A stretch of DNA of 64,000 bases from Mytilus trossulus. Lineage: Eukaryota. Below are positions 6,001-47,910 of this stretch, in pieces. The number at the start of each line of letters is the position of its first letter. The stretch's first letter is position 1. The position numbers and the translations under genes were made by a program. The notes beneath the pieces were generated by a model, which had not been told where the DNA came from, made no database searches, and saw only the letters and a list, made by a program, of their open reading frames with translations. Where the stretch lies: positions 44,268,001 to 44,332,000 of the forward strand of contig NC_086381.1 of assembly GCF_036588685.1 (NCBI RefSeq), given 5' to 3'.

Positions 6001-9000
6001 ATACCCCTCTTTTTGTTTACGTTTTGACAAAATTACAGCTACGCGTAGGAACTATTTTGTTTAACTTATGTACTACTTTCTGGTATGTTCTTTTGTGACC
6101 GGGCCAGCATTTTTGCTTCAATACCTTATTGGTGTCAAGCGGAAAATGAAAGAACTGACACACTCTATTTTAATTTGGAAATTAGTGCAGACACCCCTTC
6201 AAACTTTAAATAAGTCTTACTAATTTCCTGGATAGAAAAGAAAAAAAAATTAAGCGATAATTAAAACAAATACTGTTATATGTTTTAATTCAACAAAATT
6301 CAGAATCTTTTTGAAAGGATTTTATTGACGTATAACTTGTATCTTCCTTTTTTCCTATTAAATGTTTCAAAAAAGTTGTTTCCTTTTTACTAAAACATTG
6401 AAAATACGATCGCATTTGATAGCTGTTGATTATCAGGGGAATAAATCTATTTGACGGCAGCCCCCCCCCCCCCTTTTCTTAAATAAATCTAAAAGCAATG
6501 CAAAAAGCAAAAATAAAACATAAATACACTAAAAAAATCATTCGCCAATCATAATACGAAACAAAACAAGCTTGTTCTTTCTGAACCCAGCATACATTGT
6601 ATTGGGTTCGAAACCCTTATATAGTACACAATTTGTAAAGTTTCCTCAGAGAAGGTATTGAAAAAATCTGGACAGAAATATACGTATTGTATACGTTTGT
6701 GGGTTTTGGGGCATTTTTCGTCTTTTTGGAAGTTGTGATCTGCAAAGTTTAAAATTAGATAGTTGCAAAAAGAGTTAAACAACGTATAAATCATGAAAGG
6801 AGTCTTTATCGTGGTTTTTTTTAGAAAACAATTCATAATTTTGCAAATCTGTGAATTTATCCGTTTATTAGTATACCTTTTTCATTAAATAATGTTTACA
6901 TATAAATTTGCAAAGAAACAGTTTCATGTTAACCACAGACTAGAAGTAAAGCTTTAGACCTGGTGGGAACTAATAAAGATAAAAAAAAAAAGACCTGGTG
7001 GGAACTCTACCCTTGTTGGGTTTGAGTAAAACTCGTACGTCTAGGCGACGAGATTAATTTTAAGACACAACTTTCTCCATTTCTCTCTTTGATACTTTTG
7101 CCAATGAAAAGGGGGATGATGGGAACCTATAACTGTTATATAACCCTGTTTAACGGTTTTTTGTCTATGTCAGAATACTTGGCGATTGTTGTCTTTCGTC
7201 ATATCGTATTGTCAGTACCGCCCCCCCCCCCTTTATTAATATAGAACTTAGATTTGTTTTGTTGAATTTATATGTTTAAAAAAAAAGAAGATGTGGTATG
7301 ATTTCTAATGTAACAACTCTCTACAAGAGACCAAAGGACACAGATATTAATAACTATAGGACATCGTACGGCCTTCAACAATGAGCAAAACCCATATCGC
7401 ATAGTCAGCTTTAAAGGAAATGTAATAGAATTCAAATAAAATAACTAACGGTCTCATCTATGTACAAAATAAGTAACGAAAAACAAATATATCTTTCATA
7501 TAATCGAGACAATTAAGAGCAAGAAATATTGTGTGGTGACCTGACTATTGTCGCGGACTGTACGTATGCATCAAGATATTTATTTCCGTTAATTCTGTCG
7601 TTAGGTTATTGTTCCATTGACATATTATAACCCTCATCTGGTTCTCCTTCTATTTCATTCTTAATTTTCCGTGTTCACTACTAGGTGAGAAAAAAATTAA
7701 TATATAAATCTGATTGCACCTATATACCATATTGTCAGGACACCGGTCCATTTTTTAAGATTACACGTCCCTCTCTCGATGTCTTTTGGTTATTTGTGTA
7801 GTTGGATTGCTGTCTCATTGCCGTATACTTCACATCAACTTTTATTCATGCAGCTTATGACTACAAAAAATATTATCATATCAGCCTGATAGTACACTGC
7901 TAATTTTTTTTGTCTTTGTTTATAATATAGCGGATTGACATAATTGTGTCGGGGTTTAACGTCCAGTGACAAATATTTCATGTATAGTCAAGGCCATTGT
8001 GTCAGCTAGAAATTAAATCGTAAAGATATTGCGCATATGTCTTGTCCACTTCAACATTGGCTATTTTTGTATTTTCTGAGTGAAGAAAGAAAGAAACTTG
8101 CGCACTTACTTCAAGTGTGTTTTCTGGAACAAAAAACACTAATGCATAGCCTTCTGTGTTATATTATGCAATTTTGAGCATTTAAAGCTACTTTTGTCTT
8201 TTAATTAGTAAAGTGGCAGTCATTTCATAACAAAACTATACGTTGAATTAGGCCTTTAGATTTCTAAATTAAACTGACTCCTATTTTATTTTTGTCTGGG
8301 TTTTTTCGTAGCCGACTTTACGGTTTGGGTTTTTCTCATTGTTGAAGACCGTACGATTGTCTATAATTACGTACATCGACTTCATTTGAACTTTTGTTGA
8401 TAGTTCTCTCATTAGCAGTCTTTATTTATATACATAATCGACTTGACTGCGCTGAAAAAATATCTTAATTTACATATTACAATGCACTGGTTCCAAAAAG
8501 TTGGGTTATATGAAAAATATATCAAAAAAAAAACCAACCAGGTACTTCCGTCCCGAATGACAAGGCAAATATGACCCCTATCAAAGTATCAAATATTAAT
8601 TTATTATTCAAGAGAAACTGTCATCGAGGATTCTACAGTGATCCCAAGACCTGGCGCTTTCATTTGACACAAAAATACCCCTCTTTTTGTTTACGTTTTG
8701 ACAAAATTACAGCTACGCGTAGGAACTATTTTGTTTAACTTATGTACTACTTTCTGGTATGTTCTTTTGTGACCGGGCCAGCATTTTTGCTTCAATACCT
8801 TATTGGTGTCAAGCGGAAAATGAAAGAACTGACACACTCTATTTTAATTTGGAAATTAGTGCAGACACCCCTTCAAACTTTAAATAAGTCTTACTAATTT
8901 CCTGGATAGAAAAGAAAAAAAAATTAAGCGATAATTAAAACAAATACTGTTATATGTTTTAATTCAACAAAATTCAGAATCTTTTTGAAAGGATTTTATT

Positions 9001-12000
9001 GACGTATAACTTGTATCTTCCTTTTTTCCTATTAAATGTTTCAAAAAAGTTGTTTCCTTTTTACTAAAACATTGAAAATACGATCGCATTTGATAGCTGT
9101 TGATTATCAGGGGAATAAATCTATTTGACGGCAGCCCCCCCCCCCCCCCTTTTCTTAAATAAATCTAAAAGCAATGCAAAAAGCAAAAATAAAACATAAA
9201 TACACTAAAAAAATCATTCGCCAATCATAATACGAAACAAAACAAGCTTGTTCTTTCTGAACCCAGCATACATTGTATTGGGTTCGAAACCCTTATATAG
9301 TACACAATTTGTAAAGTTTCCTCAGAGAAGGTATTGAAAAAATCTGGACAGAAATATACGTATTGTATACGTTTGTGGGTTTTGGGGCATTTTTCGTCTT
9401 TTTGGAAGTTGTGATCTGCAAAGTTTAAAATTAGATAGTTGCAAAAAGAGTTAAACAACGTATAAATCATGAAAGGAGTCTTTATCGTGGTTTTTTTTAG
9501 AAAACAATTCATAATTTTGCAAATCTGTGAATTTATCCGTTTATTAGTATACCTTTTTCATTAAATAATGTTTACATATAAATTTGCAAAGAAACAGTTT
9601 CATGTTAACCACAGACTAGAAGTAAAGCTTTAGACCTGGTGGGAACTAATAAAGATAAAAAAAAAAAGACCTGGTGGGAACTCTACCCTTGTTGGGTTTG
9701 AGTAAAACTCGTACGTCTAGGCGACGAGATTAATTTTAAGACACAACTTTCTCCATTTCTCTCTTTGATACTTTTGCCAATGAAAAGGGGGATGATGGGA
9801 ACCTATAACTGTTATATAACCCTGTTTAACGGTTTTTTGTCTATGTCAGAATACTTGGCGATTGTTGTCTTTCGTCATATCGTATTGTCAGTACCGCCCC
9901 CCCCCCCCCTTTATTATTATAGAACTTAGATTTGTTTTGTTGAATTTATATGTTTAAAAAAAAAGAAGATGTGGTATGATTTCTAATGTAACAACTCTCT
10001 ACAAGAGACCAAAGGACACAGATATTAATAACTATAGGACATCGTACGGCCTTCAACAATGAGCAAAACCCATATCGCATAGTCAGCTTTAAAGGAAATG
10101 TAATAGAATTCAAATAAAATAACTAACGGTCTCATCTATGTACAAAATAAGTAACGAAAAACAAATATATCTTTCATATAATCGAGACAATTAAGAGCAA
10201 GAAATATTGTGTGGTGACCTGACTATTGTCGCGGACTGTACGTATGCATCAAGATATTTATTTCCGTTAATTCTGTCGTTAGGTTATTGTTCCATTGACA
10301 TATTATAACCCTCATCTGGTTCTCCTTCTATTTCATTCTTAATTTTCCGTGTTCACTACTAGGTGAGAAAAAAATTAATATATAAATCTGATTGCACCTA
10401 TATACCATATTGTCAGGACACCGGTCCATTTTTTAAGATTACACGTCCCTCTCTCGATGTCTTTTGGTTATTTGTGTAGTTGGATTGCTGTCTCATTGCC
10501 GTATACTTCACATCAACTTTTATTCATGCAGCTTATGACTACAAAAAATATTATCATATCAGCCTGATAGTACACTGCTAATTTTTTTTGTCTTTGTTTA
10601 TAATATAGCGGATTGACATAATTGTGTCGGGGTTTAACGTCCAGTGACAAATATTTCATGTATAGTCAAGGCCATTGTGTCAGCTAGAAATTAAATCGTA
10701 AAGATATTGCGCATATGTCTTGTCCACTTCAACATTGGCTATTTTTGTATTTTCTGAGTGAAGAAAGAAAGAAACTTGCGCACTTACTTCAAGTGTGTTT
10801 TCTGGAACAAAAAACACTAATGCATAGCCTTCTGTGTTATATTATGCAATTTTGAGCATTTAAAGCTACTTTTGTCTTTTAATTAGTAAAGTGGCAGTCA
10901 TTTCATAACAAAACTATACGTTGAATTAGGCCTTTAGATTTCTAAATTAAACTGACTCCTATTTTATTTTTGTCTGGGTTTTTTCGTAGCCGACTTTACG
11001 GTTTGGGTTTTTCTCATTGTTGAAGACCGTACGATTGTCTATAATTACGTACATCGACTTCATTTGAACTTTTGTTGATAGTTCTCTCATTAGCAGTCTT
11101 TATTTATATACATAATCGACTTGACTGCGCTGAAAAAATATCTTAATTTACATATTACAATGCACTGGTTCCAAAAAGTTGGGTTATATGAAAAATATAT
11201 CAAAAAAAAAACCAACCAGGTACTTCCGTCCCGAATGACAAGGCAAATATGACCCCTATCAAAGTATCAAATATTAATTTATTATTCAAGAGAAACTGTC
11301 ATCGAGGATTCTACAGTGATCCCAAGACCTGGCGCTTTCATTTGACACAAAAATACCCCTCTTTTTGTTTACGTTTTGACAAAATTACAGCTACGCGTAG
11401 GAACTATTTTGTTTAACTTATGTACTACTTTCTGGTATGTTCTTTTGTGACCGGGCCAGCATTTTTGCTTCAATACCTTATTGGTGTCAAGCGGAAAATG
11501 AAAGAACTGACACACTCTATTTTAATTTGGAAATTAGTGCAGACACCCCTTCAAACTTTAAATAAGTCTTACTAATTTCCTGGATAGAAAAGAAAAAAAA
11601 ATTAAGCGATAATTAAAACAAATACTGTTATATGTTTTAATTCAACAAAATTCAGAATCTTTTTGAAAGGATTTTATTGACGTATAACATGTATCTTCCT
11701 TTTTTCCTATTAAATGTTTCAAAAAAGTTGTTTCCTTTTTACTAAAACATTGAAAATACGATCGCATTTGATAGCTGTTGATTATCAGGGGAATAAATCT
11801 ATTTGACGGCAGCCCCCCCCCCCCCCCCTTTTCTTAAATAAATCTAAAAGCAATGCAAAAAGCAAAAATAAAACATAAATACACTAAAAAAATCCTTCGC
11901 CAATCATAATACGAAACAAAACAAGCTTGTTCTTTCTGAACCCAGCATACATTGTATTGGGTTCGAAACCCTTATATAGTACACAATTTGTAAAGTTTCC

Positions 12001-12318
12001 TCAGAGAAGGTATTGAAAAAATCTGGACAGAAATATACGTATTGTATACGTTTGTGGGTTTTGGGGCATTTTTCGTCTTTTCGAAGTTGTGATCTGCAAA
12101 GTTTAAAATTAGATAGTTGCAAAAAGAGTTAAACAACGTATAAATCATGAAATGAGTCTTTATCGTGGTTTTTTTTAGAAAACAATTCATAATTTTGCAA
12201 ATCTGTGAATTTATCCGTTTATTAGTATACCTTTTTCATTAAATAATGTTTACATATAAATTTGCAAAGAAACAGTTTCATGTTAACCACATACTAAAAG
12301 TAAAACTTTAGACCTGGT
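1..12318. repeat. Tandem array of a ~2.68 kb unit (4.6 copies visible, continues off the left edge)
   Basis: The string cgcatatgtcttgtcc recurs at 1, 2679, 5358, 8032 and 10710 (periods 2678, 2679, 2674, 2678). Copies differ mainly in homopolymer lengths plus a few substitutions. Identity stops after ...tttagacctggt at ~12318. Confidence 0.97.
1929..2135. mobile_element. Fragment of an abundant interspersed repeat (aagaagatgtggtatgatt... family), present in every full array unit
   Basis: Same sequence family as 42845-43275 and 56881-57250, and in reverse orientation 44135-44315, 22178-22362, 19228-19408 and 12445-12523. Confidence 0.75.
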
Positions 12319-22362: not shown

Positions 22363-22560
22363 TGTTGAAGTAAGAATTGCAACATAAATAAAAGATAAAT
22401 AAGTAGTCCAATGTTTAACAAATTTCTGATAAATAGTACCTATAATTTTCATTTATTTTGTTAATAACATGTGCACAATTTTGTATATGTATTGCCTCTG
22501 TCACAAAACGATCGTTCATGTTATAACTACTTTTTTGGTTGAATAACTTTTTTAGAAAAC

Positions 22561-24169
22561 TGTGACGTAGAAAATATTCGTTCAAAATAGAATAGAAGAA
22601 TATTTAATAAATGAAAGTATATTCAATAGATAGAACAAAGACTTGTTAAATTTACAATTAAATAAAGAGGTTCATATTTTAAGAGAAACATAATAAAATT
22701 GATTTAAAAAGTTTTAAACCAAGTTACAACGCAATGTTATGTAACAGGAAATTATAGAAAACATTATCAAAAAGATTGTGACATGTTAATCCCCCTGAAA
22801 TAAATTAAGCTTTAATAATTATGAAAAGGGGCACATTTTAGACAATAAATCATTATCAATAGGGATAGCGTCCCGCCGAAGGCAAAGCGATTATTTTATA
22901 AAAAAATAATCGTCTATTGTATAATAGGTTTTAGGGAGGAGTAACTCAAATTAATTTTAAATTGAGGAATAAATTATCTTGTGATTGGACAAACAAATTT
23001 AGGTTGATCTTTGAGTGACCACGTGGAAAAAAGGTTTTAAGGGATAAATTTTGATAATAAACTTCACTTGGTCACTTGATAGCAAGAATAAAGATATAGC
23101 CTGAATTTGTGTCCATTATATTTAAGGTATGTAAAGTATAAGTGTTAACAATTAATTAAGAATAATAATTTAACTCTTAATGGATTTATTTTGTTAAATC
23201 AAATTAAAGTAAAAGAACCTTTTCAGTTACGATAAGTATATTTATATAATTTGTAAAGTTTATAGGTTTGTTGAATATTAGGTAATTCAATCAAGAATTT
23301 AAGCATATAATAAGTTCCGTAAAGATTACATGTTTGCAGCTATTGGTTTTATTTTATAATATTAAAGGGACATAATTTGATATTGTTTAGAACGATACTC
23401 GTTTGAAGAAAACAATTTTAGAAATAATAAGAACCAAAGGAATATTTAAAATGATATTTATAGATAAGTTCAACTCTAAGATAGTCAGGAAACTGAACAA
23501 TAAGCAGTAAGTCTTGGGAAGGCGAAAATAATTAGGTTTGATCAACAAGAGAAAATGTTTATATCAACGGGATACTAGGACTGTAAAATAATGTTTATTA
23601 CTTAAGAATGCAAAGATATAAGTAAATATATATTGCTCGAAAGTCCTTAATTAATTATGTCTTTCAATTCGGATCATGCATTTTATAATATAAGTTATTT
23701 ATTTTTATAAGAAATAAAATATACTGCCAGTTCAATTTGAGCTTGAAATGTGAAGATTATATATGAGATTGAGATATACAATTTTACAATGTTCATTGTT
23801 AAAGGTTTATAATAAAGTATTTAGTTTGACAAATAGTCAGGGACTATCCAAATTGAGTGTTAACTCTAATTTCATATATATATTTAAGAATGTAAAGATG
23901 AGAGTTAGTTCCCTTGTTAAAAGATGATTTTGGAATATGCAGAATTTATATTTAAGGTTCTTTATATGCATGTATGTTTCTTTTATTTTTGATATCGTTA
24001 ATTCATAATGTATGTACAATTGTAATTAAATGTTCATGATGTTCACTTGGTCACTTGATAGCAAGAATAAAGATATAGCCTGAATTTGTGTCCATTATAT
24101 TTAAGGTCCAGCGGCAAAAAGTTATCAAGTATAGCACGATACAAAACACCCCCAAGTATCGACACAACA
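22561..24169 (+). repeat. 5' LTR (1609 bp)
   Basis: Starts tgtgacgtag, ends gacacaaca; repeated at a constant offset of 11184. Reverse CCAAT (gattgg ~22983), CACGTG (~23020) and GATAAA (~23043) precede Inr-like TCACTT at ~23064. Confidence 0.97.
23063..23128 (+). repeat. 66 bp LTR-internal direct repeat, copy 1 (copy 2 at 24042-24107; 3' LTR copies at 34247-34312 and 35226-35291)
   Basis: ttcacttggtcacttgatagcaagaataaagatatagcctgaatttgtgtccattatatttaaggt is identical in all four places and contains AATAAA. Copy 1 continues as the splice donor AAG|GTATGT. Confidence 0.95.
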
Positions 24170-24173
24170 GATT

Positions 24174-24182
24174 TGGTGGAGG
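24174..24182 (+). promoter_or_regulatory. Primer-binding site (TGGTGGAG; possibly tRNA-Ala)
   Basis: Lies 4 nt after the LTR end; complementary to a tRNA 3' end ...CUCCACCA. The tRNA identity is tentative because the match is short. Confidence 0.7.
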
Positions 24183-24214
24183 AGAGAGGAAAGAACGGTA
24201 CCTAAAATTTAGAA

Positions 24215-25483
24215 ATGCCAAGCACCCCCCTAAACAGAAACTTGCGGTCGACCAACAAAACCACAGAAGGAGACCAGCAAGCAACAGAAAGAATCATAAC
24301 AACTGAACCAACTCAACGTAGAACAGAAAGTGTTGGAACAACAGCTGGTACAAGTGGAATTTCAACAACTAGTACAAGTGGAATTTCAACAACTGGTACA
24401 ACTGGAACTACAACAACTAATAATAGTGACAACACAACAACTGGTACAACTCAAGTTACTACAGTGGAAATACATCCAGAAAGTGACACACAAGGAATAG
24501 TACAACATACAACCATGCAACAACAGGACCAAGCACAACAAAATCCACAGGTACAACCTTTTATATTTAATGCAACAGCACTCCTTCAACCGTCAATATA
24601 TGACGGATCTTCAAAACCTTCATCATGGATTTCCCAATTTTCATCATGGACTAAACTACAAAACCTAACAGACAAAAACGCCATAAATGCGTTAACATTC
24701 TATCTAACTGGTTCAGCAAAAATTTGGTTTCAAAGTTTGCCAGATTCAGCAAAAACAAATCTAGCATCAATTATAAAACTTCTAGAAGTAAGATTTACAA
24801 CATCAGATGATGAAGATATTCTAACAACACAAGCAACAAATGAAAGTGTACATGAATTTTTAGACCGACTTACTCTTAAAGCTACAAGTCAACGCATCCC
24901 AGAATGCTTAGTTCTAAAAATAGCAAGAAAAGGGTTTAAACAGGCCCTACAACAATCCATTATACAGCAAAATCCGAAAAACATGGCCGAATTAAGAGAA
25001 GCCGCAGTCATTGCAGAAAAATGCTTAGCATCAAACATCAGTCAACAAATTTCAATCAATGCCATTTCACAAAATGACTTTAAATCATTAAGTGATACAA
25101 TTAAATTATTATCTGACAAGGTAGAAAATTTAAATATTGAAAATCAAGAACTGAAGGCCAACTTTGGCAAGGCCAATCAAAATTATCAAAACAAGCCAAA
25201 TTGGCAAAATAATAGAGCGCCTGGCAGAAACTTTAATGGTCAAAGAAATTTTCAAAAGAATTCAACTTATCAACAAGCTAGACCAGCTTACAATTCAAAT
25301 GCCAGCTGGAACTCATATAATAAAACCAACACATGCACAGCATGTGGCAATATGTCATGTTCAGGCAAAAGGGAAACTTGCGATGCAAGTGATAAAAAAT
25401 GTTATAAATGTGAAAGAATTGGACATTACTCAAGGCAATGTCATAGTATCAGAAACATAAGAGGCGAAATTATTAGGCACTAG
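24215..25483 (+). CDS. gag: Gag (422 aa): Thr-rich N-terminus, capsid-like region, coiled coil, C-terminal zinc knuckle
   Basis: PSIYDG...W...F, LTGSAKIWFQSL and QATNESVHEFLDRL are retrotransposon-gag-like motifs; CYKCERIGHYSRQC is a CCHC knuckle; the ORF directly follows the PBS. Confidence 0.93.
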   Translation: MPSTPLNRNLRSTNKTTEGDQQATERIITTEPTQRRTESVGTTAGTSGISTTSTSGISTTGTTGTTTTNNSDNTTTGTTQVTTVEIHPESDTQGIVQHTTMQQQDQAQQNPQVQPFIFNATALLQPSIYDGSSKPSSWISQFSSWTKLQNLTDKNAINALTFYLTGSAKIWFQSLPDSAKTNLASIIKLLEVRFTTSDDEDILTTQATNESVHEFLDRLTLKATSQRIPECLVLKIARKGFKQALQQSIIQQNPKNMAELREAAVIAEKCLASNISQQISINAISQNDFKSLSDTIKLLSDKVENLNIENQELKANFGKANQNYQNKPNWQNNRAPGRNFNGQRNFQKNSTYQQARPAYNSNASWNSYNKTNTCTACGNMSCSGKRETCDASDKKCYKCERIGHYSRQCHSIRNIRGEIIRH

Positions 25484-28400
25484 GGACGCGAGCCTATTTT
25501 TAGGCGGCTGTCTAAAAGTGGGCATAGTGGCAAGTCTCCAAGAGTTAACTTAATTACCCCTATGGATAAAAATAAAATTTCAATAGAAGTTTATGATGTT
25601 AAAACAATAGGACTTGTTGATACAGGTGCCTCTATCTCATGTGTCTCAGAAAACTTGATAAATAAGTTAAGTAATAGTAAAATAGAACTTGAGAGAACAA
25701 ATTTTATGAATATTTATGGAGTAGGAGGTGAAGAACATAAAGTATTGGGTAAAGTTACGCTCCCACTTAAATTTCAAGGACTTGTCATTAAACATAGATT
25801 TCATGTAGTTCAAGATCTACAATATCCTGTAATTTTAGGTGATGAATTTTTATTACAAAATAAATGTAATATCCATTATCCCTCCCGTACATTGTATATA
25901 CATGAAGGGTCACTACAAGTTTCCCTCCTTAGTACAAAATCTGGAAAAGCAAGAACGGCTAAAAGATTTAAAGTACCTGCTAATAGTATGGCAAATGTTT
26001 CAGTAAAAATTTCAGATATTTTTTTGAATGATGTAGTGTTATTAGAACCACTACCTTTACTTAACAAATATGAACTGATAGGAGCCTCTTGTTTAGTAAA
26101 AGTTTCTAAATCGGGTTCAAAATTTCAAATTATTAACCCTACTGATATGGCAGTCACAATACCTAAATTTAGCATAATAGCAAATGTGATGCCAGTGGTT
26201 GAAGATAGTATTCAAAGCTTGTCTGATGATAAAAGTGAAAAACAAAAAAACGAATGTGTAGCAAATATAAATAGTTCAAAAGTGAAAAAGGAAAAAAGTA
26301 AAAGATCTAAAAGTAAAATAGATTTTGACCTTGACTCATCAGATATGACAAATGATCAGAAACAAAAATTTTTGAAATTTTTAAATGTAAATAGAGATGT
26401 GTTTGCAGCTGACTTGTCTGAACTGGGGAAATGTAATATAGGGGAACATAAAATTGAAACTACTGACAACATTCCTATTAGAGTACCCCCATACAGAGCA
26501 ACGCCCAAGGTTAAAGCTGAAATAGAAAAGCAAATCGACAAAATGTTAGATAACAAAATTATTGAACCGTCCACTTCCCCGTACAACAGCCCAGTTGTGC
26601 TTTGTCAGAAAAAGGATAAGTCCTTTAGATTTTGTATAGACTATCGCAAGCTAAATGCTAAGACAACTGTAGAATGCTGGCCTTTAGCAAGCTTAAATGA
26701 CGTTTTCGACGCTATTGGGGAAGCAAAAGCCACTATATTTACTAGTCTCGATCTTTGTCAGGGATATTGGCAAGTCCCACTACACAAAGACTCACGGGAA
26801 AAAGCTGCTTTTGTAACTCATTCAGGAATATATGAATGGACAAGAATGCCATTTGGTCTGAGAAACAGCAGTATTACTTTTTCAAGAGTTATAAGTCAAG
26901 TACTACAAGGTTTAAACTGGAAAAATGTATTGGCTTACATAGATGATATTTTGGTATTTAGTAAAAATTTAGAAGATCACATGCATCATTTAGATCAAGT
27001 TTTCGACCGACTTAAAAAGGCTAACCTCAAACTAAAACCAAGCAAATGTCACTTTGGAGTTAAACAAGTAAACTACTTAGGTCATATTTTGACAAAAGAA
27101 GGTGTTACAACAGATCCTGAAAAGATACATATTGTCAAAAATCACCCAGCTCCTAAAAACCAACATGAGGTACGACAATTTCTAGGCTTATGTAACTATT
27201 ACAGAAAATTTGTGGAAGGCTATGCAAAAATAACAATTCCATTAAATTCCCTACTACAAAAGGAAAGTGAATTCAAATGGACAGACAAATGCCAAGAATC
27301 ATTTGAATTATTAAAATCAAAGTTAATATCTGCACCAATTTTGGCATTCCCAGACATGTCAAAACCTTTTATTCTAACCACAGATGCATCAGGTCAAGCG
27401 ATAGGGTATATACTTGGTCAAAAAGATGACCAAAATAGGGAAAGAGTAATATCTTTTGGTGGTCGGGCCCTGAAAAAGGAAGAAAAGAAATGGACTGTTA
27501 GTGAAAAAGAATGTTTGGCTGTGTTAGAAGGAATTAAACACAATAGGGTCTATTTATCCCATGACAAATTCACTGTTTTCACTGACCACAAAGCTTTATT
27601 ATGGTTAAATAAGGTTAAAGATACAAATGCAAAATTAGGAAGATGGGCACTAGAGTTGCAGAATTTTACTTTTGATATAATCTTCAAAGAAGGTAAAAAT
27701 AACAAAAATGCAGATGCAATCTCAAGAATACCCTACCCACCCACCCCTGAAAAGGTAGATAGTAATCAAGTCGAGGTACTAGGCTTAGAAACAAAGGAAC
27801 CAGAAGATGTAGGTATGTTAACAGAAATTACATTTGAATATGAAATTCAAAAACCATGTATTGCTGCCATAAATGATGAAAATGACAATGAGGTAAGATT
27901 AAATGATATGTCGGAAATAGCAAAGCTACAAAGACAATGTACAGAATTGTCAGACTTAGTAACCTTTCTAGAAAGTGGTATATTACCTCAAAATGATAAA
28001 AAGGCAAAAAGTATAATATACGAAAAAGACCTGTACAGGTTCGGCACAGAAGGTGAGTTAATACATCAATACCTACCTAGAACGAAAGGAGTACCTAGAT
28101 CAGAAGTAATGATTGAACAAATTGTACTTCCAAAATGCATGAGACAAGAAGCTTTAGAAGCATACCATGATTGTAGAGCTGGTGGAGGTCATAAAGGTTT
28201 TCGTAGAACATATGCAGCTTTACAACAAAAATACTACTGGTCTGGTATGTATCAAAATGTGTACAACTATGTCATTTCTTGTGATGCATGTCAGAGAGCA
28301 AAAAGACCAACAAATAAACGACCAGCACCATTGATGCCTCTGCCAGTCGCAGAAACATTTGAAAGATGGCACATGGATATCTTATCAGGGTTTCCAACAA

Positions 28401-29608
28401 GTAAAGATAAGTATCAACATGTATTACTAGTGGTTGACAGTTTCTCACGATGGGCTGAAGCATTTCCGCTGAGAACACAAGAAGCTAAGGAAATTGCTCA
28501 TATTTTGTACAAAGAGGTATTTACTAGATTTGGAAGTCCTAAAACTTTGGTGTCTGATAGAGGTCAAAATTTCTGCTCAAAGCTAATACAAGCTTTATGT
28601 GAACTTTTCCATGTTACACGTCACACAACAAGTTCATATCACCCACAATCAAATACAACATGTGAAAGGATGAATAGTACAATAGCTCAGACCTTGCGTA
28701 CATATTGTACTAAAGACCAAATAAATTGGCCAGAGCTAATTCCAAGTGTTATGATGGCTTTACGGATGTCACCAAACACAGAGTCAACAGGATACTCCCC
28801 ATTTCATATGGTTTTTGGTAAGGAAATGAACATACCATTTGATATCTCAGTTAAACCGAAAGAAAACATAGGTAGGTCAGTGAAAGAACATATTAATGAT
28901 CTTATAGAACACTTAAAAGCAGTCCAAACAATTGCCAAGAATAATGTAAGTAAAAGTCAGGAGAAAACTAAGACATACTATGACAAAAAGGCAGCAAAAC
29001 CAAAATTTCAAGTAGGTGACAGAGTTTTGATGCAATGCATGAAAGTACCTAAAGGGTCAGCGCCTAAACTCCATGAAAAATGGGTAGGTCCTTTTTATAT
29101 TAACCATGCCAATGAAAACACTTATAAGTTAAGAAGGTTAAGTGATCATAAATTGATAAAGTCAAGAATCCATGCAAATAGAATAAAAATATATGTGGAT
29201 CCTAGGGACCATAGGCAACCCCAAGTAGATAGACAAGTAGACGAACAACAGACTGACAATACACATGACGGACAACAAAATAATGAAGAAAATATTCAAG
29301 AAAATGATAACAATGATGTTCAAGAAAATGATAATGATAATGTTCAAGAAAATGATAATCAGAATGAGAATGATGAATTAAATGATGATAATCAATTTGA
29401 AGCTGAAAAGCTAGTAGCAAAGAAAAGACAAAATGGGCAAAATTTTTACAGGGTCAAATGGGTTGGATATAAAAAAACAACCTGGATACCTGAAAAAGAC
29501 ATTGGTGAAGGTTTGTTGGTTGACTTTCACAATAAACATACCAAAGATGGAAAAATAAGAAAAAGAAAACATATGACATGTTTTCAAAATCAAAAACATA
29601 AAGATTAA
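25484..29608 (+). CDS. pol: Pol: protease, reverse transcriptase, RNase H, integrase, C-terminal chromodomain (first ATG 25562; frame open from the gag stop)
   Basis: LVDTGAS (PR), RMPFGL and YIDD (RT), TTDASG and FTDHKAL (RH), H..H..CDAC, WHMD / VSDRG / CERMN (IN), WVGPF, then FEAEKLV...YRVKWVGY...TWIPEKDI (chromo). Confidence 0.98.
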   Translation, partial: GREPIFRRLSKSGHSGKSPRVNLITPMDKNKISIEVYDVKTIGLVDTGASISCVSENLINKLSNSKIELERTNFMNIYGVGGEEHKVLGKVTLPLKFQGLVIKHRFHVVQDLQYPVILGDEFLLQNKCNIHYPSRTLYIHEGSLQVSLLSTKSGKARTAKRFKVPANSMANVSVKISDIFLNDVVLLEPLPLLNKYELIGASCLVKVSKSGSKFQIINPTDMAVTIPKFSIIANVMPVVEDSIQSLSDDKSEKQKNECVANINSSKVKKEKSKRSKSKIDFDLDSSDMTNDQKQKFLKFLNVNRDVFAADLSELGKCNIGEHKIETTDNIPIRVPPYRATPKVKAEIEKQIDKMLDNKIIEPSTSPYNSPVVLCQKKDKSFRFCIDYRKLNAKTTVECWPLASLNDVFDAIGEAKATIFTSLDLCQGYWQVPLHKDSREKAAFVTHSGIYEWTRMPFGLRNSSITFSRVISQVLQGLNWKNVLAYIDDILVFSKNLEDHMHHLDQVFDRLKKANLKLKPSKCHFGVKQVNYLGHILTKEGVTTDPEKIHIVKNHPAPKNQHEVRQFLGLCNYYRKFVEGYAKITIPLNSLLQKESEFKWTDKCQESFELLKSKLISAPILAFPDMSKPFILTTDASGQAIGYILGQKDDQNRERVISFGGRALKKEEKKWTVSEKECLAVLEGIKHNRVYLSHDKFTVFTDHKALLWLNKVKDTNAKLGRWALELQNFTFDIIFKEGKNNKNADAISRIPYPPTPEKVDSNQVEVLGLETKEPEDVGMLTEITFEYEIQKPCIAAINDENDNEVRLNDMSEIAKLQRQCTELSDLVTFLESGILPQNDKKAKSIIYEKDLYRFGTEGELIHQYLPRTKGVPRSEVMIEQIVLPKCMRQEALEAYHDCRAGGGHKGFRRTYAALQQKYYWSGMYQNVYNYVISCDACQRAKRPTNKRPAPLMPLPVAETFERWHMDILSGFPTSKDKYQHVLLVVDSFSRWAEAFPLRTQEAKEIAHILYKEVFTRFGSPKTLVSDRGQNFCSKLIQALCELFHVTRHTTSSYHPQSNTTCERMNSTIAQTLRTYCTKDQINWPELIPSVMMALRMSPNTESTGYSPFHMVFGKEMNIPFDISVKPKENIGRSVKEHINDLIEHLKAVQTIAKNNVSKSQEKTKTYYDKKAAKPKFQVGDRVLMQCMKVPKGSAPKLHEKWVGPFYINHANENTYKLRRLSDHKLIKSRIHANRIKIYVDPRDHRQPQVDRQVDEQQTDNTHDGQQNNEENIQENDNNDVQENDNDNVQENDNQNENDELNDDNQFEAEKLVAKKRQNGQNFYRVKWVGYKKTTWIPEKDIGEGLLVDFHNKHTKDGKIRKRKHMTCFQNQKHKD

Positions 29609-30042
29609 ATGAGAAAAATATAGAATAAAAATCAAATATTAAGCTTTAGCTATAAAAATTAGGAGGAAATAAAAATTAATCCTATATAGTCAAGCGAAAT
29701 GAAATTTGATAAGGAGAAATGGAAAAACTATTAAAGGAAAATAAGAAAATCTTACCCCAAAACTATGCGCATAGTAAAATATTGAGGGAAATAATGTGAA
29801 ATAATAATAAAAAAAAAAAGTATGATTTGTAGAGTGACCAAATACATGATAAATTTCATTACGGCAAACAAAACTAAAATTATCAAAACTAAAACAATAT
29901 TTGAACTTTCTTTGTTAGAATCATGAGAATAAATCAATTTAGGTAAAACTAAAAAGATAAATTAGTGCTTATACATAAGAAAAACGTACGATTTCTAATG
30001 TGTATATCTTGGATCTAACAGACAAAAATTCTCTCGTTGTAG

Positions 30043-32445
30043 ATAAAAAGACAGGTGTCTGCTTTGATCAGCCCAATTGCCATTTTGTTTTGGATATTCA
30101 TCATGTTAACAGCTTTCATTCAGTTAAGTGAAGCAAAGTCTACTCATAAACAAATTCTTAAACTTAATTATGGCATTATATTTGAAAAACAAGGTAGAAT
30201 TCATTTTGGAAAAGATGTCTGGAAACATACCTTTCAAATTAAAATGCCAATAAAGAGAGGAAGTGTAGAAATTCAGCAATGTAAACAAAAGCAAATATGC
30301 AAAAGATACAATGAAATGATTGTACAACTAGATTTGTTGCAAAAGCAAAATGTGGTTAATTTAAATGAAACCGTAAATGTGATAAAAGAATTAATACCAA
30401 CCAACAAACCAACACTAGTCAAAGGTAGAAGAAAATCTAAAAGAGCAATCTTATCTTTCGTGGGGCAATTATCAAAAACTCTATTCAATACAGCAACTAT
30501 GGATGATGTAAACCTATTAGCAAGGCACATAAATGCCCTAACTACTAGAACATTAAAGTTAACAAATACAATGGCTCAACATGATCAGCATGAATCTTCA
30601 TATATGGCTTCTGTGGATAAAAGAATTTCAAACCTAGTTACGCAAATATCAGACAATCATAATGAAATTAATATGATGCAAAAATCTGTATTAGACAATG
30701 TCAGAGAAGCAGAAAATTTATTTCTGCATCTTCAAGCAAAGATAATAGAATCATTTTCTTTATCTTCAAAAATTAATCAGCAACTGGAACAATTGAAATT
30801 GGGAATTTTTGATTTAGTACAGGGAAAATTGTCTCCCTTACTAATAAAACCTTCAACTATAACCAGCACACTAAACAGGATACAACAGGTATTAAACACA
30901 AAATACCCAGGATTTTATATTTCGCAAACTAGTCAAAATTTTTATTATGATACCAAAAATTTTGTATTTTCAAAACATAAATCTGATATATTTGTGATGT
31001 TAAACATACCATTAGCATATAAAATGTCAAAATTTGACTTGTATAAAGTAACGTCTTTGCCATTTCCACATAATTCAACAACTCATGCTACACAATTGTT
31101 AAATACCCCTAAATATATAGCTATTACAAAAGATAAACAATATTATATAACATTGTCAGACCAAGAAGTAGAAAAATGTACCAAATATAATGATAATTTT
31201 CATTGTCAGTTTACAAAATCATTTTCAACTAGTATAAACTCATGTTTAATATCAATATATAATAACCAAAAAGAGAAGGTAAACCAATTGTGTGACTTCA
31301 GATTTTTACATGATGTAATAAAACCAAAAATTGTTGCATTAACACAATCATCTGTAGTAATATATAAAACCCCACAGTTAAATATGGATTGTAATGGAAA
31401 ACAAATAATAAAACAAGGTTGTGATTTTTGTATAATTCAAATCCCATGCAGATGTTCTATTTTAACTAAAAACTTATATATTCCACCATCATTTACAAAT
31501 TGTAAAAGATCAAATAATATAACTACTATATATCCAATAAATCTTGCTTTATTACAACAATTTTTTGATGCTAAACAATTAAAAGATATTCAACCTAATT
31601 CTACATTTAGTACATTACCAAATATTGCAATTCCAAACTTTAAAATGTATAATCATTCTTTTTCAACATTTTTGTCAAATGATAGAAGAAATCATTTAAG
31701 CCTTACAAAGATGGCTGAAGCTACAAAGAAAGAAGGCATGGTTTTCCATAATTTGGCAGAGCCACTGCTAGAAGGAATCATAAATGTTAAAGATAGTTGG
31801 CCTGATTTAAATGGTATTTTAGGCATGATAGGAACAGTACTAGCATCCATATCATTTATTTTTGCTATATGGGCATTCTTTAAAATAAAAAACCTAACAA
31901 CAGCAATAATAATACTTCAAGGATCTTGCCATGTAAAAGCTATGACAGCACCATCATTTATTTATAAAAACATTCAAACAACAACATCAAACCCAATTTC
32001 ATCAAATTTTTTTAATGAACTAAAATTTAATCATATTTTGGTGGCCATAATTGGTATTTTGATTGTCATTGTGGTTTTTCTTGTATTATACAAAAAGAAA
32101 AAAAGTTCTCAACACACATTTATATCATTAGAGATAACCACAGGTTCAAACTGCTTAACTCTTCCCCTTTGCAAGCTACCACTATGTCCATCATATTGGA
32201 CTTTTTCAATGCCACCAGAAGTTGAAAGTCTCAGTGTTTCTGGAATTTTTAGACCTAGTTTACATATTAATTGGGAAGATTTTATCATAACAAATACTTT
32301 GACACAAAAATCTATAGTAGGTCCTAAAAGTATTAAAATTTCTTTCTGGGAAGCTTTACGCTTAAAACAAATTTTAAAACAACCATTTTTTGTTTATATT
32401 TTATTAAAACACAATAATATGTACAAAATCATAAACGAGCCTTGA
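30043..32445 (+). CDS. env: Env-like class I fusion glycoprotein (baculovirus-F/errantivirus type), probably expressed by splicing
   Basis: N-terminal hydrophobic signal, furin site RRKSKR (30427-30444) followed by the fusion-peptide-like AILSFVGQLSKTLFNTATMDD, heptad region, Cys-rich region and two C-terminal hydrophobic segments. The frame opens right after ctaac...ttctctcgttgtag at 30042. Confidence 0.9.
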   Translation: MKRQVSALISPIAILFWIFIMLTAFIQLSEAKSTHKQILKLNYGIIFEKQGRIHFGKDVWKHTFQIKMPIKRGSVEIQQCKQKQICKRYNEMIVQLDLLQKQNVVNLNETVNVIKELIPTNKPTLVKGRRKSKRAILSFVGQLSKTLFNTATMDDVNLLARHINALTTRTLKLTNTMAQHDQHESSYMASVDKRISNLVTQISDNHNEINMMQKSVLDNVREAENLFLHLQAKIIESFSLSSKINQQLEQLKLGIFDLVQGKLSPLLIKPSTITSTLNRIQQVLNTKYPGFYISQTSQNFYYDTKNFVFSKHKSDIFVMLNIPLAYKMSKFDLYKVTSLPFPHNSTTHATQLLNTPKYIAITKDKQYYITLSDQEVEKCTKYNDNFHCQFTKSFSTSINSCLISIYNNQKEKVNQLCDFRFLHDVIKPKIVALTQSSVVIYKTPQLNMDCNGKQIIKQGCDFCIIQIPCRCSILTKNLYIPPSFTNCKRSNNITTIYPINLALLQQFFDAKQLKDIQPNSTFSTLPNIAIPNFKMYNHSFSTFLSNDRRNHLSLTKMAEATKKEGMVFHNLAEPLLEGIINVKDSWPDLNGILGMIGTVLASISFIFAIWAFFKIKNLTTAIIILQGSCHVKAMTAPSFIYKNIQTTTSNPISSNFFNELKFNHILVAIIGILIVIVVFLVLYKKKKSSQHTFISLEITTGSNCLTLPLCKLPLCPSYWTFSMPPEVESLSVSGIFRPSLHINWEDFIITNTLTQKSIVGPKSIKISFWEALRLKQILKQPFFVYILLKHNNMYKIINEP

Positions 32446-32932
32446 GTTTTGTTGACAATTGCCTGAACATGAATATTTTCTATCTTGTCATCATATAAAT
32501 AATATATAGTAAGGTTAGGATTGTGAAAAATGGCACCGGATTATAAATGACATTAACATTAGTGGAAATGAGAAAAACGGAGGAATTCGAAGAAATGAAA
32601 TATATGTGAATATTGAAGAATACTAAAGCAACTACAAGATGTCATGTGTTATACGTTCAACATAGAAGGATAGGATTCAATAACATCATTATTTCGTGTG
32701 GAGAAACCAACTGTGTAGATATAATTCATGGATATTGTTACAAGAAATAACCGAATATAATGTATTTTTCCGTATATTGCGCGACCTTGTTACCTTTATA
32801 CAAAAATTATCTCGTATTCTGTTTTTACTTATTAACAAAAATGTAAATGTGTTTTATTTGTGAAAATGTATGATCATATATATGTTACATTATGTTTGAA
32901 TATTAATCATATGTTGTATTATTTTGTTATAG

Positions 32933-33595
32933 ATATTTAACCATAGTTACTTCTTTTCATCCAGTAGAGGACGTGGAATCAAACAACATATTAAATGCAA
33001 AGATTTTTTTGTTAAACCAGGTGCCAAACTTTTTGATCTTTGTGAAATAGCATTTCAAAAATTGAAAAATATAAAAGAAAAGAAATTAGTTTACATTATG
33101 GCAGGAATTCCTGACATGTGTGTTAAAGACAAAGACTACAAGAAAACATATGAAGAAGTATATTTTGACAAAAAAAGTGACAAAGTCATTGAAATTAAAC
33201 ATGCCTTAGAATTTATTACAGAAAGGTTAAGTAAAATAAATTGCTATATCATTTATGTTCCAATTACAACAATGAATATTGAAAAATGGAACTACCATAG
33301 ACTTTATATAAATAAAACAAAATTCCTTCTTCATACAGAAAACTATATGAAAATGCAAGACAACTTAAATTGGGCTGTTCATCAGATAAATATATATATT
33401 ATAAGCCACAATAAAACATCTGAATTGGCAACTCCATTAATACAAGCATATGTACACAAATCTACTGGATCAAAGAAAAGATATGCATATGCAAAACTGG
33501 TGGATGGTGTTCATCCATCAGAACAATTGATTCAATCATGGGTAAAACAAATAAAAAAAACCATGAGTGAAAATGAATCCAGGTTACAAATGTAG
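32933..33595 (+). CDS. ORF4: SGNH/GDSL hydrolase-fold protein (~220 aa) inside the retroelement
   Basis: The frame is open from 32933, upstream of the track's 33062 start: IFNHSYFFSSSRGRG (block I), FVKPGAKL (II), VYIMAGIPD (III), LVDGVHPS (V). It begins directly after the acceptor-like attttgttatag. Confidence 0.8.
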   Translation: MFNHSYFFSSSRGRGIKQHIKCKDFFVKPGAKLFDLCEIAFQKLKNIKEKKLVYIMAGIPDMCVKDKDYKKTYEEVYFDKKSDKVIEIKHALEFITERLSKINCYIIYVPITTMNIEKWNYHRLYINKTKFLLHTENYMKMQDNLNWAVHQINIYIISHNKTSELATPLIQAYVHKSTGSKKRYAYAKLVDGVHPSEQLIQSWVKQIKKTMSENESRLQM

Positions 33596-33744
33596 AATAG
33601 ATGAAAATTGATGTGCATGTATATATGTTATTGGTGTAATTTTTTTTATATATAGAAACAGTAACAATGAGTAATTTTATGTTATTTTATTTAGCATACA
33701 GTTAACTTTGAGGGACCAAAGTTTTTTTTGTCCGACAGGGTATT

Positions 33745-35353
33745 TGTGACGTAGAAAATATTCGTTCAAAATAGAATAGAAGAATATTTAATAAATGAAA
33801 GTATATTCAATAGATAGAACAAAGACTTGTTAAATTTACAATTAAATAAAGAGGTTCATATTTTAAGAGAAACATAATAAAATTGATTTAAAAAGTTTTA
33901 AACCAAGTTACAACGCAATGTTATGTAACAGGAAATTATAGAAAACATTATCAAAAAGATTGTGACATGTTAATCCCCCTGAAATAAATTAAGCTTTAAT
34001 AATTATGAAAAGGGGCACATTTTAGACAATAAATCATTATCAATAGGGATAGCGTCCCGCCGAAGGCAAAGCGATTATTTTATAAAAAAATAATCGTCTA
34101 TTGTATAATAGGTTTTAGGGAGGAGTAACTCAAATTAATTTTAAATTGAGGAATAAATTATCTTGTGATTGGACAAACAAATTTAGGTTGATCTTTGAGT
34201 GACCACGTGGAAAAAAGGTTTTAAGGGATAAATTTTGATAATAAACTTCACTTGGTCACTTGATAGCAAGAATAAAGATATAGCCTGAATTTGTGTCCAT
34301 TATATTTAAGGTATGTAAAGTATAAGTGTTAACAATTAATTAAGAATAATAATTTAACTCTTAATGGATTTATTTTGTTAAATCAAATTAAAGTAAAAGA
34401 ACCTTTTCAGTTACGATAAGTATATTTATATAATTTGTAAAGTTTATAGGTTTGTTGAATATTAGGTAATTCAATCAAGAATTTAAGCATATAATAAGTT
34501 CCGTAAAGATTACATGTTTGCAGCTATTGGTTTTATTTTATAATATTAAAGGGACATAATTTGATATTGTTTAGAACGATACTCGTTTGAAGAAAACAAT
34601 TTTAGAAATAATAAGAACCAAAGGAATATTTAAAATGATATTTATAGATAAGTTCAACTCTAAGATAGTCAGGAAACTGAACAATAAGCAGTAAGTCTTG
34701 GGAAGGCGAAAATAATTAGGTTTGATCAACAAGAGAAAATGTTTATATCAACGGGATACTAGGACTGTAAAATAATGTTTATTACTTAAGAATGCAAAGA
34801 TATAAGTAAATATATATTGCTCGAAAGTCCTTAATTAATTATGTCTTTCAATTCGGATCATGCATTTTATAATATAAGTTATTTATTTTTATAAGAAATA
34901 AAATATACTGCCAGTTCAATTTGAGCTTGAAATGTGAAGATTATATATGAGATTGAGATATACAATTTTACAATGTTCATTGTTAAAGGTTTATAATAAA
35001 GTATTTAGTTTGACAAATAGTCAGGGACTATCCAAATTGAGTGTTAACTCTAATTTCATATATATATTTAAGAATGTAAAGATGAGAGTTAGTTCCCTTG
35101 TTAAAAGATGATTTTGGAATATGCAGAATTTATATTTAAGGTTCTTTATATGCATGTATGTTTCTTTTATTTTTGATATCGTTAATTCATAATGTATGTA
35201 CAATTGTAATTAAATGTTCATGATGTTCACTTGGTCACTTGATAGCAAGAATAAAGATATAGCCTGAATTTGTGTCCATTATATTTAAGGTCCAGCGGCA
35301 AAAAGTTATCAAGTATAGCACGATACAAAACACCCCCAAGTATCGACACAACA
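33745..35353 (+). repeat. 3' LTR (1609 bp)
   Basis: Same length as the 5' LTR and no differences seen by eye; followed by TSD AAAC. Confidence 0.97.
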
Positions 35354-35564
35354 AAACTGTAAAAAAAAAAAATGTATATCGGATCTGGCCGTTCAATGAT
35401 AAAACATTTAGCCTGATATTTTCATTTTCATGATGAGTGTAGCATTCTTTTTTAGTGAAGGGAGAAAAAAGAGATAAAAAAGAAATACAGTATAGAGAAA
35501 AATGTACTTAAAATGTCAAGAATACATATTTAAGACCCTGTAAAATGGTGTTTGGAAAATACTT

Positions 35565-36341: not shown

Positions 36342-38099
36342 ATGAAGACAGGAACGTTTACATTCGTATTTGGAGTTTTATTTCTATATTGCGCAAATGG
36401 TAAGTTAACATTTAAAGTTAATTCGTATCATGTTAGTAATAAATTAATTATTCTTTAAAAATAATTTGAATAAGTAATTTAAGGTACCAATGAAAATGAC
36501 ATTTATATATTTGTTGCGCTTTTCTGGATATGTCTCAGTCATCAGTAACGCTCATGCTCCAAAATAGACAAGCAAGTCCATTATGATATATATATTCACT
36601 CTTAAATACAGATGCACTGTCATGTTTTGTAATTGTGAAAAATGCAACATCTTGAAAAGAGAACGAACTGCTGTACTTGTTAACTTGTTTTGTTGACCAA
36701 TTGACCCGTTAATGTTGATCTCTATATCTCTCTTTATTCACCTGAAATATAAAAATTTATATCAAAAACTTTTATTAAATTTATTTTTCATTTTTCAATT
36801 TTAGGTCATAAATATCACAGCTACCGCAGATATGGGAGGCACCACGTGAAACATCGACCTATTAAACAGGAAGGGTCCTTACTTCCGGTAAATCCTCCTG
36901 TAAACATATGTCCACCTCTTGTTTGTCCATTGATTGATATTCCAAACGAATGTCGAAAGGAAATATATACTAATGTGTATGGAGTACTTTGCAGAGGATG
37001 TGACAAAAATATATGTGTAAATAATAAAATAGTTCCAGACATTACAAAAATTCAACCGGACAATGGACCAAGTAGAGGTGACATTCCAAAAGTTCCAAAG
37101 TTTGTCAATCAAATGACCGGTAAACTTACCGGAAGTTGGCTCGATGCAAATCTGAATCCAAAGCCTGTATATATACCAAATAATCAATTTCAAATCAATA
37201 ACAACATTCCATTGCCAAACAATGTTCCGGTCTGGCAAAATAGTTTGAACACGCAGTGGACAAATAATGGGCCCCTGAATCCACAATGGCAAAGTAATGT
37301 TCCAGCAAATATCCAATGGCAAGATAATGTACCAATCAACTCTCAATGGCAAAATACAATACCAATGAACAACCAGTGGCAGAACAATGGAGCTGGTAAC
37401 AGTTTATGGCAAAATAACGTAGCTGGCAACAGTCTTTTGCAAAATAATGGAGCTGGCAACAGTCTATTGCAAAATAATATAGCTGGCAACGGTCTATTGC
37501 AAAATAATGTAGCTGGCAACGGTCAATGGCAAAACAGTGGAGCAGTAAATTCACAATGGCAAAATATTTTGCCAAATAATCAATTGCAGAACACACTGCC
37601 GATCGATCAAAACAACATGCAATTTCCTGTTAATAATCAATGGCAAAGTGCACCTGTGTTTAGACAGCAACCCAACACACTTACTGTACTTGGAACATTA
37701 GCACAAGGTGGACCGTCTCAAAACACACCATTTGTACGTGGATCTTTCCAATCACCAAACCAAGCTATCCCACAATTCAATCAGAACCCGTCAGGTAGTT
37801 CTTTGCCTGTTTTTAGAAACAATCAACAGATAGGGACACCAATATCTGGTCTACCTATTCAACTTACCGGAAAAGACGTGAAGTCGGTCCCGATTCGAAA
37901 AGAAAGTGATCAAAATGGGAAAATAGTCGAATCAGCTCCTGTTCTCATAAAAACTAGCGAAAATCTTGGATTTACCAATCCGCTATATAATGAATTACCG
38001 TTCGTTCAAACTATCGACAGTATAAACAGTAAAGTATATGATGCGAATGCACCCGAAGCTTTAATCACCAAAGCTGTAAACTCAGTTGGTGGCGTGTAA
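36342..38099 (+). CDS. Secreted Asn/Gln/Pro/Trp-rich repeat protein, 2 exons, 450 aa (possible shell-matrix or byssal-type structural protein)
   Basis: Exon 1 (36342-36399) encodes the signal peptide MKTGTFTFVFGVLFLYCANG and ends G|GTAAGT. Exon 2 (36805-38099) follows tttttcaattttag, phase 1, in frame with the 417 aa ORF. It has a His/Arg/Tyr-rich start, a 6-Cys module and decapeptide repeats ending QWQN/LLQN. Confidence 0.88.
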
Positions 38100-47610: not shown

Positions 47611-47648
47611 ACGCATTTATTCTAAAAACAGTTGTTGGCATGGCACGG

Positions 47649-47715
47649 TCATATATGTTATGATGGTATGATACTAAACCCCTAACTGGAAGGATTGTGC
47701 CTGATGTTCATATGA
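47649..47715 (+). promoter_or_regulatory. Putative SECIS element
   Basis: ATGAT (47660-47664), stem ggtatgatact, AAA (47676-47678), ggattgtgcc, TGAT (47702-47705), with a lower stem tcatat/atatga. It lies ~40 nt after the RT stop. Confidence 0.75.
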
Positions 47716-47910
47716 TGAAATCATAATCTTTCAGTCAGTTTAATTTAAGTCTGGAGCTGGCATGTCAGTTAACTGCTAGTAGTCTGTTGTTATTTATGTA
47801 TTATTGTCATTTTGTTTATTTTCTTTGGTTACATCTTCTGACATCAGACTCGGACTTCTCTTGAACTGAATTTTAATGTGCGTATTGTTATGCGTTTACT
47901 TTTCTACATT

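Follow-up and report, generated by a model that had tools for sequence, protein, structure and literature searches.

The window analyzed in this study, a stretch of 64,000 nucleotides of the Mytilus trossulus genome (contig NC_086381.1, positions 44,268,001 to 44,332,000), carries an intact-looking Ty3/gypsy element with env (22561-35353; 12.8 kb), the long terminal repeats (LTRs) of which contain an intron. The last 61-64 bases of this intron repeat the segment directly preceding it, and we consider it very probable that the LTR intron is rebuilt by reverse transcription in each cycle. Four independent lines support regeneration, namely RNA-like splice joints, a GT-AG loss in a sister element, a cap-derived mark, and variants shared between the two copies of the repeat. 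The first-pass annotation of this DNA had already proposed regeneration through a duplicated leader, and its account is supported by these lines and by the layout of sibling elements, albeit it lacked the role of the repeat end as a splice acceptor, the cap-derived G, and the intron-less and alternatively spliced copies.

Layout of the LTR

Both LTRs are 1,609 bp long and 100% identical to each other (22561-24169 and 33745-35353), with TG...CA ends. An exact direct repeat of 66 nt occupies 23063-23128 and 24042-24107, with an offset of 979 nt, and recurs at 34247-34312 and 35226-35291; in 200 base-shuffled LTRs, the maximum length of an exact repeat reached 17 nt (mean 11.6). Being present twice in each of two identical LTRs, the duplicated 66-nt leader described earlier is real, and the ends assigned to its copies (TTTAAG|GTATGT for copy 1 and TTTAAG|GTCCAG for copy 2) and the AATAAA in both (23087 and 24066) are as claimed. 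Its extent was refined, since the likely exon of 61 nt, 23066-23126, begins with the A of TTC-ACTT and closes with AG, and 3 nt upstream and the shared GT make up the rest of the 66 nt. The parts of the 5' LTR are listed below.

22561..23065, + strand: upstream part of the LTR, presumed promoter; retained in intron-less copies
23063..23128, + strand: copy 1, with putative exon 1 at 23066-23126 (initiator-like TTC-ACTT as the presumed start, AATAAA at 23087-23092, T-rich tract, AG)
23127..23132, + strand: splice donor GTATGT behind copy 1; contigs of the presumed transcript runs X1 and X2 depart at 23126
23127..24105, + strand: GT-AG intron of 979 nt, 24% GC, with 24 ATGs and AATAAA at 23713, 23811 and 24066
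23507..23512, + strand: second donor GTAAGT within the intron; joint 23506^24106 in X4 and X10, loose end in X12
24041, + strand: G immediately 5' of the match of copy 2 to copy 1; likely footprint of cap copying (reading after PMC11998490)
24042..24107, + strand: copy 2, the intron's 3' end, with AATAAA at 24066-24071 and acceptor AG at 24104-24105
24106..24169, + strand: exon 2 part of the LTR, 64 nt, U5-like

TGTA occurs four times in the 100 nt upstream of copy 2 of the window and not at all before copy 1. A TATA-like box lies ~25-30 nt before copy 1 in 4 of 15 family rows, and is not clear in the family of the window.

The search of the genome with the LTR returned 17 matches. The copies of the window's family on C5 and C2 carry both repeats, and the C5 LTR L003 reads TTG-ACTT in copy 2 versus TTC-ACTT in copy 1. 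The two LTRs of the C4 element (target-site duplication ACAA; LTRs 96% alike) retain the promoter part, a single copy of the repeat, and U5, whereas precisely 23127-24105 is missing. In an older solo-like LTR on C2 (L010, 1571-1629), copy 2 ends with TATTTCAG and copy 1 with TTTAAG; the acceptor of this copy 2 looks stronger than that of the window.

Splice joints in RNA-like contigs

The contigs of the presumed transcript runs do not show RNA ends, strand or level, and depth was not used to rank parts. Among the loose ends listed none carried poly(A), which speaks neither for nor against a particular 3' end. The joint 23506^24106 (GT..AG) was found in X4 and X10, with a matching loose end in X12, across the three studies P2, P4 and P6, and the X4 contig with this joint runs on into the env splice. 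The DNA-like run X19 gave no splice joint. We thus regard the terminal AG of copy 2 as a working acceptor and the RNA as starting upstream of copy 2. Transcription starting at copy 2 alone, which the first-pass annotation had named as a case against its reading, does not fit the joining of the second donor at 23507 to 24106 in three studies.

In X1 and X2, contigs depart from the window sequence at 23126 and continue behind a TTGACAG that lies 2.1 kb downstream of a truncated copy on C11 with copy 1 alone. As these contigs join a host AG behind the truncated copy, the donor of copy 1 works; usage of the copy-1 donor, on which the earlier reading depended, is therefore seen in RNA-like contigs at this truncated copy. 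At C11:29605554 to 29603421 (minus strand; L013 and L231), the first exon of the truncated LTR is donated to a host exon 2.1 kb away, and the C11 LTR likely drives a host transcript. A cassette exon at 23340-23506 was considered and rejected, no joint into 23340 being among those listed.

The same layout in sister families

Forty elements were hand-picked, 39 from 150 matches of the reverse transcriptase (RT) and one from 44 matches of env, and their ends were examined. In 22 of the 40, an exact or near-exact repeat of 27-72 nt was found, of which copy 1 ends with AG|GT and copy 2 sits ~40-140 nt before the LTR end, enclosing introns of 279-1,432 nt. Three elements (C20:4082006, C7:35321147, and C12:43238221) have a single leader or a shortened form; L353 and L354 are intron-bearing members of the C20 family. 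The remaining 15, all more distant, showed no duplication, and two of them had no detected LTR pair. Altogether, the layout was found in 13 families of this genome including that of the window, the RT-RNase H sequences of which, where recovered, are 51-69% identical to that of the window. The duplication in sibling elements, on which the earlier proposal had been staked, is thus present in families with sequences of their own.

In the RT phylogeny, which comprises elements of this genome alone (C3:86351300 left out), the families with the layout occupy five of the seven branches of a supported 31-row clade. As the base of this clade is unresolved, a single origin with losses and several origins are indistinguishable. 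Between families, leaders are 50-77% alike, where shuffled sequences reach 50%, and the whole LTR of the window showed no meaningful similarity to those of the two nearest families. The family-own sequences follow a common order of initiator, poly(A) signal, pyrimidines, and AG. The repeat is invariably bounded by the initiator A and by AG|GT, copy 1 being followed by the GT donor and copy 2 by the LTR end. Of 15 rows, 14 show a leader with a pyrimidine-rich end and, 30-42 nt ahead of the AG, a hexamer of poly(A) type; TGTA occurs 2-5 times per 100 nt before copy 2 and 0-2 times before copy 1. The layout is also present in three families without an env match (C8:36093107, C5:11673268, and C11:57508432), and is thus not tied to env.

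Among 52 loci outside this genome, most of which stop before an LTR, the layout was found in one, L185, where the repeat spans 67 nt, the intron measures 259 nt, and copy 1 is preceded by a TATA box. It was absent in the five outside loci with overlapping ends (L186, L188, L197, L222, and L229; env 23-28% identical).

L119 has a 27-nt repeat (3787-3813 and 4066-4092) and a 279-nt intron without a poly(A) signal in the repeat, and its family may be a minimal or decayed form. The C7:35321147 element has an LTR of 667 bp (L112, 4849-5515) with one leader ending TTTTCATTACAG and no donor. At C1:37547416-37560012 (L240, L243-L246, and L250), at least seven LTRs of the C8 family form a tandem run with 1.9 kb spacing.

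The duplication could be neutral, arising by template slippage or as an artefact of assembly, with splicing irrelevant. Internal repeats are common in LTRs, and intron-less copies exist, one of them young with intact frames (C20:4082006). However, the layout is repeated across 13 families and an independent contig whose intron measures 259 nt, the splice joints fall at the predicted sites, and the 66-nt unit is found at twice the LTR depth in the DNA-like run (1,037 versus ~500). This explanation is thus largely refuted, and we give it hardly any credence.

Genomic traces of reverse transcription

In the element C12:43238221 (target-site duplication GTAT), both LTRs lack exactly the GTAACA...TTCCAG of AAG|GTAACA...TTCCAG|CAATT, with AG alone common to both ends, so that the missing part runs from a donor internal to the LTR to the acceptor. 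As DNA recombination from repeat to repeat cannot make such a deletion, this loss indicates that the spliced leader was reverse transcribed. Other LTR deletions had overlaps of 0-18 nt and no GT-AG ends, and were not counted as splicing.

A change from C to G at position -1, made by RT reading through the cap, has been reported in HIV-1 (human immunodeficiency virus type 1) and murine leukemia virus (PMC11998490). We counted cap marks and copy identity in four families (C8, C5, C7, and C14), with L310 and L327 dropped as truncated. Position -1 of copy 1 is C in all 66 scored LTRs. Ahead of copy 2, G stands at -1 in 30/30 LTRs of the C8 family (including paired and tandem LTRs) and 14/18 of the C5 family, and at -2 in 14/16 of the C7 family. 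Over families, G before copy 2 was found in 12 of 14 with the copies first read and in 9 of 14 with alternative copies, the chance being ~0.17 per family. The mark is the same as in cap copying (PMC11998490), but here it stands at copy 2, which lies 1 kb past the inferred start; this position suggests strand transfer at copy 2 by a transcript that starts at the initiator A. In a single case, the intron-less LTR L316, the G is embedded in promoter context, the outcome that transfer to copy 1 would give.

The two copies are identical in 47 of the 68 LTRs of the four families. In addition, variants common to both copies within single LTRs were found as three events in the C7 family (L266/L267/L272, L276/L277, and L276), at two sites in L314, and at one in the C20 family (L353), where ~0.02-0.08 shared variants per LTR are expected by chance.

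These traces bear on two further explanations. With two promoters, genomic RNA would start at copy 2 and a separate spliced mRNA at copy 1, with selection or gene conversion keeping the copies alike. A cap-derived G before copy 2 would likewise result from transcription starting there, and selection alone could suffice for the likeness, the leader in X19 having 0 differences from the window and the intron body 37 differences and 18 gaps over 965 nt. On the other hand, copy 2 is without the initiator C and has a TGTA-rich upstream sequence, TATA-like boxes precede copy 1, there is no route to variants shared between the copies, and C12:43238221 represents an upstream-started spliced RNA that was reverse transcribed and integrated. 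We therefore regard two promoters as unlikely.

Alternatively, only unspliced RNA with an R of 1 kb would be packaged, as in HIV-2 (human immunodeficiency virus type 2), and survival of the intron would be trivial, the duplication being a relic of intron birth by tandem AG-GT duplication, with conversion at the DNA level. HIV-2 keeps its 5'-untranslated-region (5'-UTR) intron as its particles exclude spliced genomic RNA (PMC3315320), and contigs cover the intron body here, including one that runs from the promoter part through copy 1 into the intron (X4 record 18). However, unspliced contigs are equally expected from the 3' LTR, the cap mark should precede copy 1, where C was found in every scored LTR, and neither the exact identity of the copies, with boundaries shared by 13 old families, nor the precise GT-AG loss in C12:43238221 fits this scheme. 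The latter loss, found in both LTRs, contradicts the premise that spliced RNA is not reverse transcribed, and we consider an HIV-2-like system very unlikely.

A model for intron regeneration

We propose the following cycle for regeneration by strand transfer. Transcription would likely start at 23066, and the 5' intron would be spliced out to leave a leader of 125 nt with no ATG before gag. Splicing is likely a requirement for translation, given 24 ATGs within the intron and none in the spliced leader ahead of gag. The AATAAA of copy 1 would be silent in the 5' LTR, 22 nt from the cap, and the 3' LTR would be read through copy 1, its AATAAA held off by U1 at the adjoining donor by analogy with foamy virus (PMC3694450). 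The RNA would then be cut inside copy 2 upstream of the AG, and the 3' intron would be kept because the predicted cleavage removes the acceptor. The first cDNA would measure 125 nt on a spliced leader (1,104 nt on an unspliced one), would often run on across the cap, and would pair with copy 2 at the end of the RNA. The new LTR would take its promoter, copy 1 and intron body from the 3' end of the RNA and its copy 2 and U5 from the spliced 5' end, so that copy 1 overwrites copy 2 in every cycle. Transfer to copy 1 instead would yield intron-less LTRs, such as those seen, as a leak. The persistence of the long form in 13 families despite this leak implies a benefit, which we guess to be intron-enhanced expression or evasion of the silencing of intron-less DNA.

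Several observations weigh against this model. The eight runs consist of assembled contigs from other individuals, the RNA nature of which was guessed. The main junction, 23126^24106, is indistinguishable from unspliced copy 2 in contigs, and the only contig without the 979 nt, from X11, could represent either an intron-less DNA copy or a chimera of the assembly graph. The acceptor of the window's family ends with AAG, a weak form. Three elements of the model are inferred, namely where transcription starts, polyadenylation within copy 2, and masking by U1. The C14:69664308 family has no G before copy 2 (0/3), and binomial figures for the G overstate independence because the families are related. 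The C12:7865397 family has a repeat of just 27 nt and no poly(A) signal. The copies are unequal in 21 of 68 LTRs, both LTRs being affected in four elements (L253/254, L264/265, L273/274, and L292/293); the unequal copies fit a lag of one cycle or later decay. Intron-less LTRs are frequent (the C4 element, L284, L287-L290, L316, L317, L335, and C20:4082006), and the choice of copy 2 is thus not strict. Partner LTRs of six intron-less LTRs and L335 were not found within stretches of 7-10 kb.

Coding content of the element

The remaining features of the element are as follows.

22557..22560, + strand: target-site duplication AAAC, partner at 35354-35357
22561..24169, + strand: 5' LTR, 1,609 bp, TG...CA, same sequence as the 3' LTR
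24174..24181, + strand: primer-binding-site-like TGGTGGAG; comparable motif behind sister LTRs
24215..25483, + strand: gag, beginning with the first ATG of the spliced leader, with a CCHC knuckle; env donor after 24550
25484..29608, + strand: pol, with protease, RT, RNase H, integrase, and chromodomain-like tail
30043..32445, + strand: env-like open reading frame (ORF) of 800 aa; the splice 24550^30043 links it in frame with gag codon 112
32933..33595, + strand: fourth ORF, 220 aa
33745..35353, + strand: 3' LTR, with repeat copies at 34247-34312 and 35226-35291; poly(A) cleavage predicted from AATAAA spacing in copy 2 at ~35266-35285, before the AG

The order of pol domains fits Ty3/gypsy (Metaviridae), with RVT_1 at 375-536, RT_RNaseH at 624-728, and rve at 959-1054, as do the TG...CA ends of the paired LTRs and the target-site duplication of 4 bp (4-6 bp in this group). 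The match of protease at 37-123 was below the cut-off, as was that of the tail to chromodomain PF00385 (E 4e-5; 23.9 bits, under the cut-off of 25.1). By sequence, the element is a Ty3/gypsy element that resembles chromodomain-bearing F-type errantiviruses. The env-like protein is 95% identical to a protein of Mytilus californianus and 33-39% identical to proteins of Haliotis, Pinctada, Pecten, Argopecten, and Ruditapes. PF12259 is present on many of the 46 homologues of the env ORF, whereas the Pfam search of the env ORF itself gave no PF12259 match. Contigs of X2 and X4 contain the joint 24550^30043, by which gag codon 112 is joined in frame to the env ORF, and env is likely made from subgenomic RNA as a fusion with a Gag leader. 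The fourth ORF had no match in searches of Pfam and PDB. Its C-terminal end bears a DGVHP motif, which may recall SGNH hydrolases.

Sequences neighbouring the element

On the plus strand at 36753-38099, 1.4 kb past the element, there is an open frame of 448 aa with an internal repeat and no Pfam match, which may be a host exon near the promoter of the 3' LTR. Another open frame, of 403 aa and without a Pfam match (46399-47610), lies inside an inverted repeat of 1.1 kb (46526-54349; 77% identical). The window begins with a tandem array (1-12318) of ~4.6 copies of a 2.68-kb unit that are 99.4% identical, and ends with a long 60-bp minisatellite (58700-64000) that contains minus-strand open frames.

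Comparison with known systems

The element shares with the ancient errantiviruses described in PMC13524379 the gag-pol-env order, F-type env relatives (PF12259 on the homologues), and the chromodomain-like tail, but differs from them in that its LTR layout also occurs in families without an env match. In that study, chromodomain-bearing errantiviruses of Cnidaria, Mollusca and Annelida form a clade, and among the first 15 rows for molluscs in its Supplementary file 1, 7 of the 10 bivalve entries with LTR coordinates have LTRs of >1.1 kb (PMC13524379). Its main text does not contain "splice", and the sole "intron" is within its references (PMC13524379). Splice signals in or at the LTR are also known from the 5'-UTR intron of HIV-2 (PMC3315320) and from the donor in R of foamy virus, where donor-bound U1 suppresses a nearby poly(A) signal (PMC3694450). 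HIV-2 keeps spliced RNA out of particles, whereas spliced RNA was reverse transcribed in the case of C12:43238221, and the accounts consulted in PMC3315320 and PMC3694450 contain no duplicated exon. Penelope-like elements likewise keep spliceosomal introns despite RNA mobility, but are not LTR elements and have a telomerase-like RT and a GIY-YIG nuclease (PMC4209133), in contrast to the gypsy RT and DDE-type integrase here. For the non-LTR element TART of Drosophila, a template jump between 5' and 3' direct repeats has been proposed to restore the 5' sequence (PMC1636488). A duplicated first exon that renews an LTR intron was not found described in the open-licence PMC and bioRxiv literature, subscription papers and Repbase reports lying outside this scope, and the portions consulted of PMC6238403, PMC12440569, and 10.1101/2022.12.06.519325 do not mention the layout.

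Ismail et al. reportedly engineered split-intron retroviral vectors in 2000. In such vectors (PMC3182074), RT moves a donor from the 3' LTR to the 5' LTR and thereby creates an intron. Creation of the intron is artificial, happens one time, and removes the packaging signal, whereas the proposed process here is natural and renews a whole intron via a duplicated exon.

Implications

Intron loss is treated as a hallmark of reverse transcription. If regeneration holds, a spliced LTR that regains its intron in each cycle would be an exception to this rule, achieved via ordinary strand transfer. The promoter would lie 1 kb inside the formal U3, and a single unit of 60 nt would combine the functions of a first exon, a splice acceptor, a poly(A) signal, and the repeat for strand transfer. 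Donors of copy 1 also splice to host exons.

The HUSH complex recognises invaders by their lack of introns (PMC8770142). We tentatively raise the possibility, which we would not favor at present, that mimicry of host genes by a self-renewing LTR intron is old and widespread and has been invented repeatedly, being ancestral to a large Ty3/gypsy clade of marine invertebrates and kept because intron-less copies are subject to HUSH-like silencing or less expressed. A match to a TASOR-type domain in the genome (one exon; E 5e-5) shows no more than compatibility with the HUSH idea. As intron-bearing and intron-less sister copies reside in one genome, the benefit of the intron is testable from existing data.
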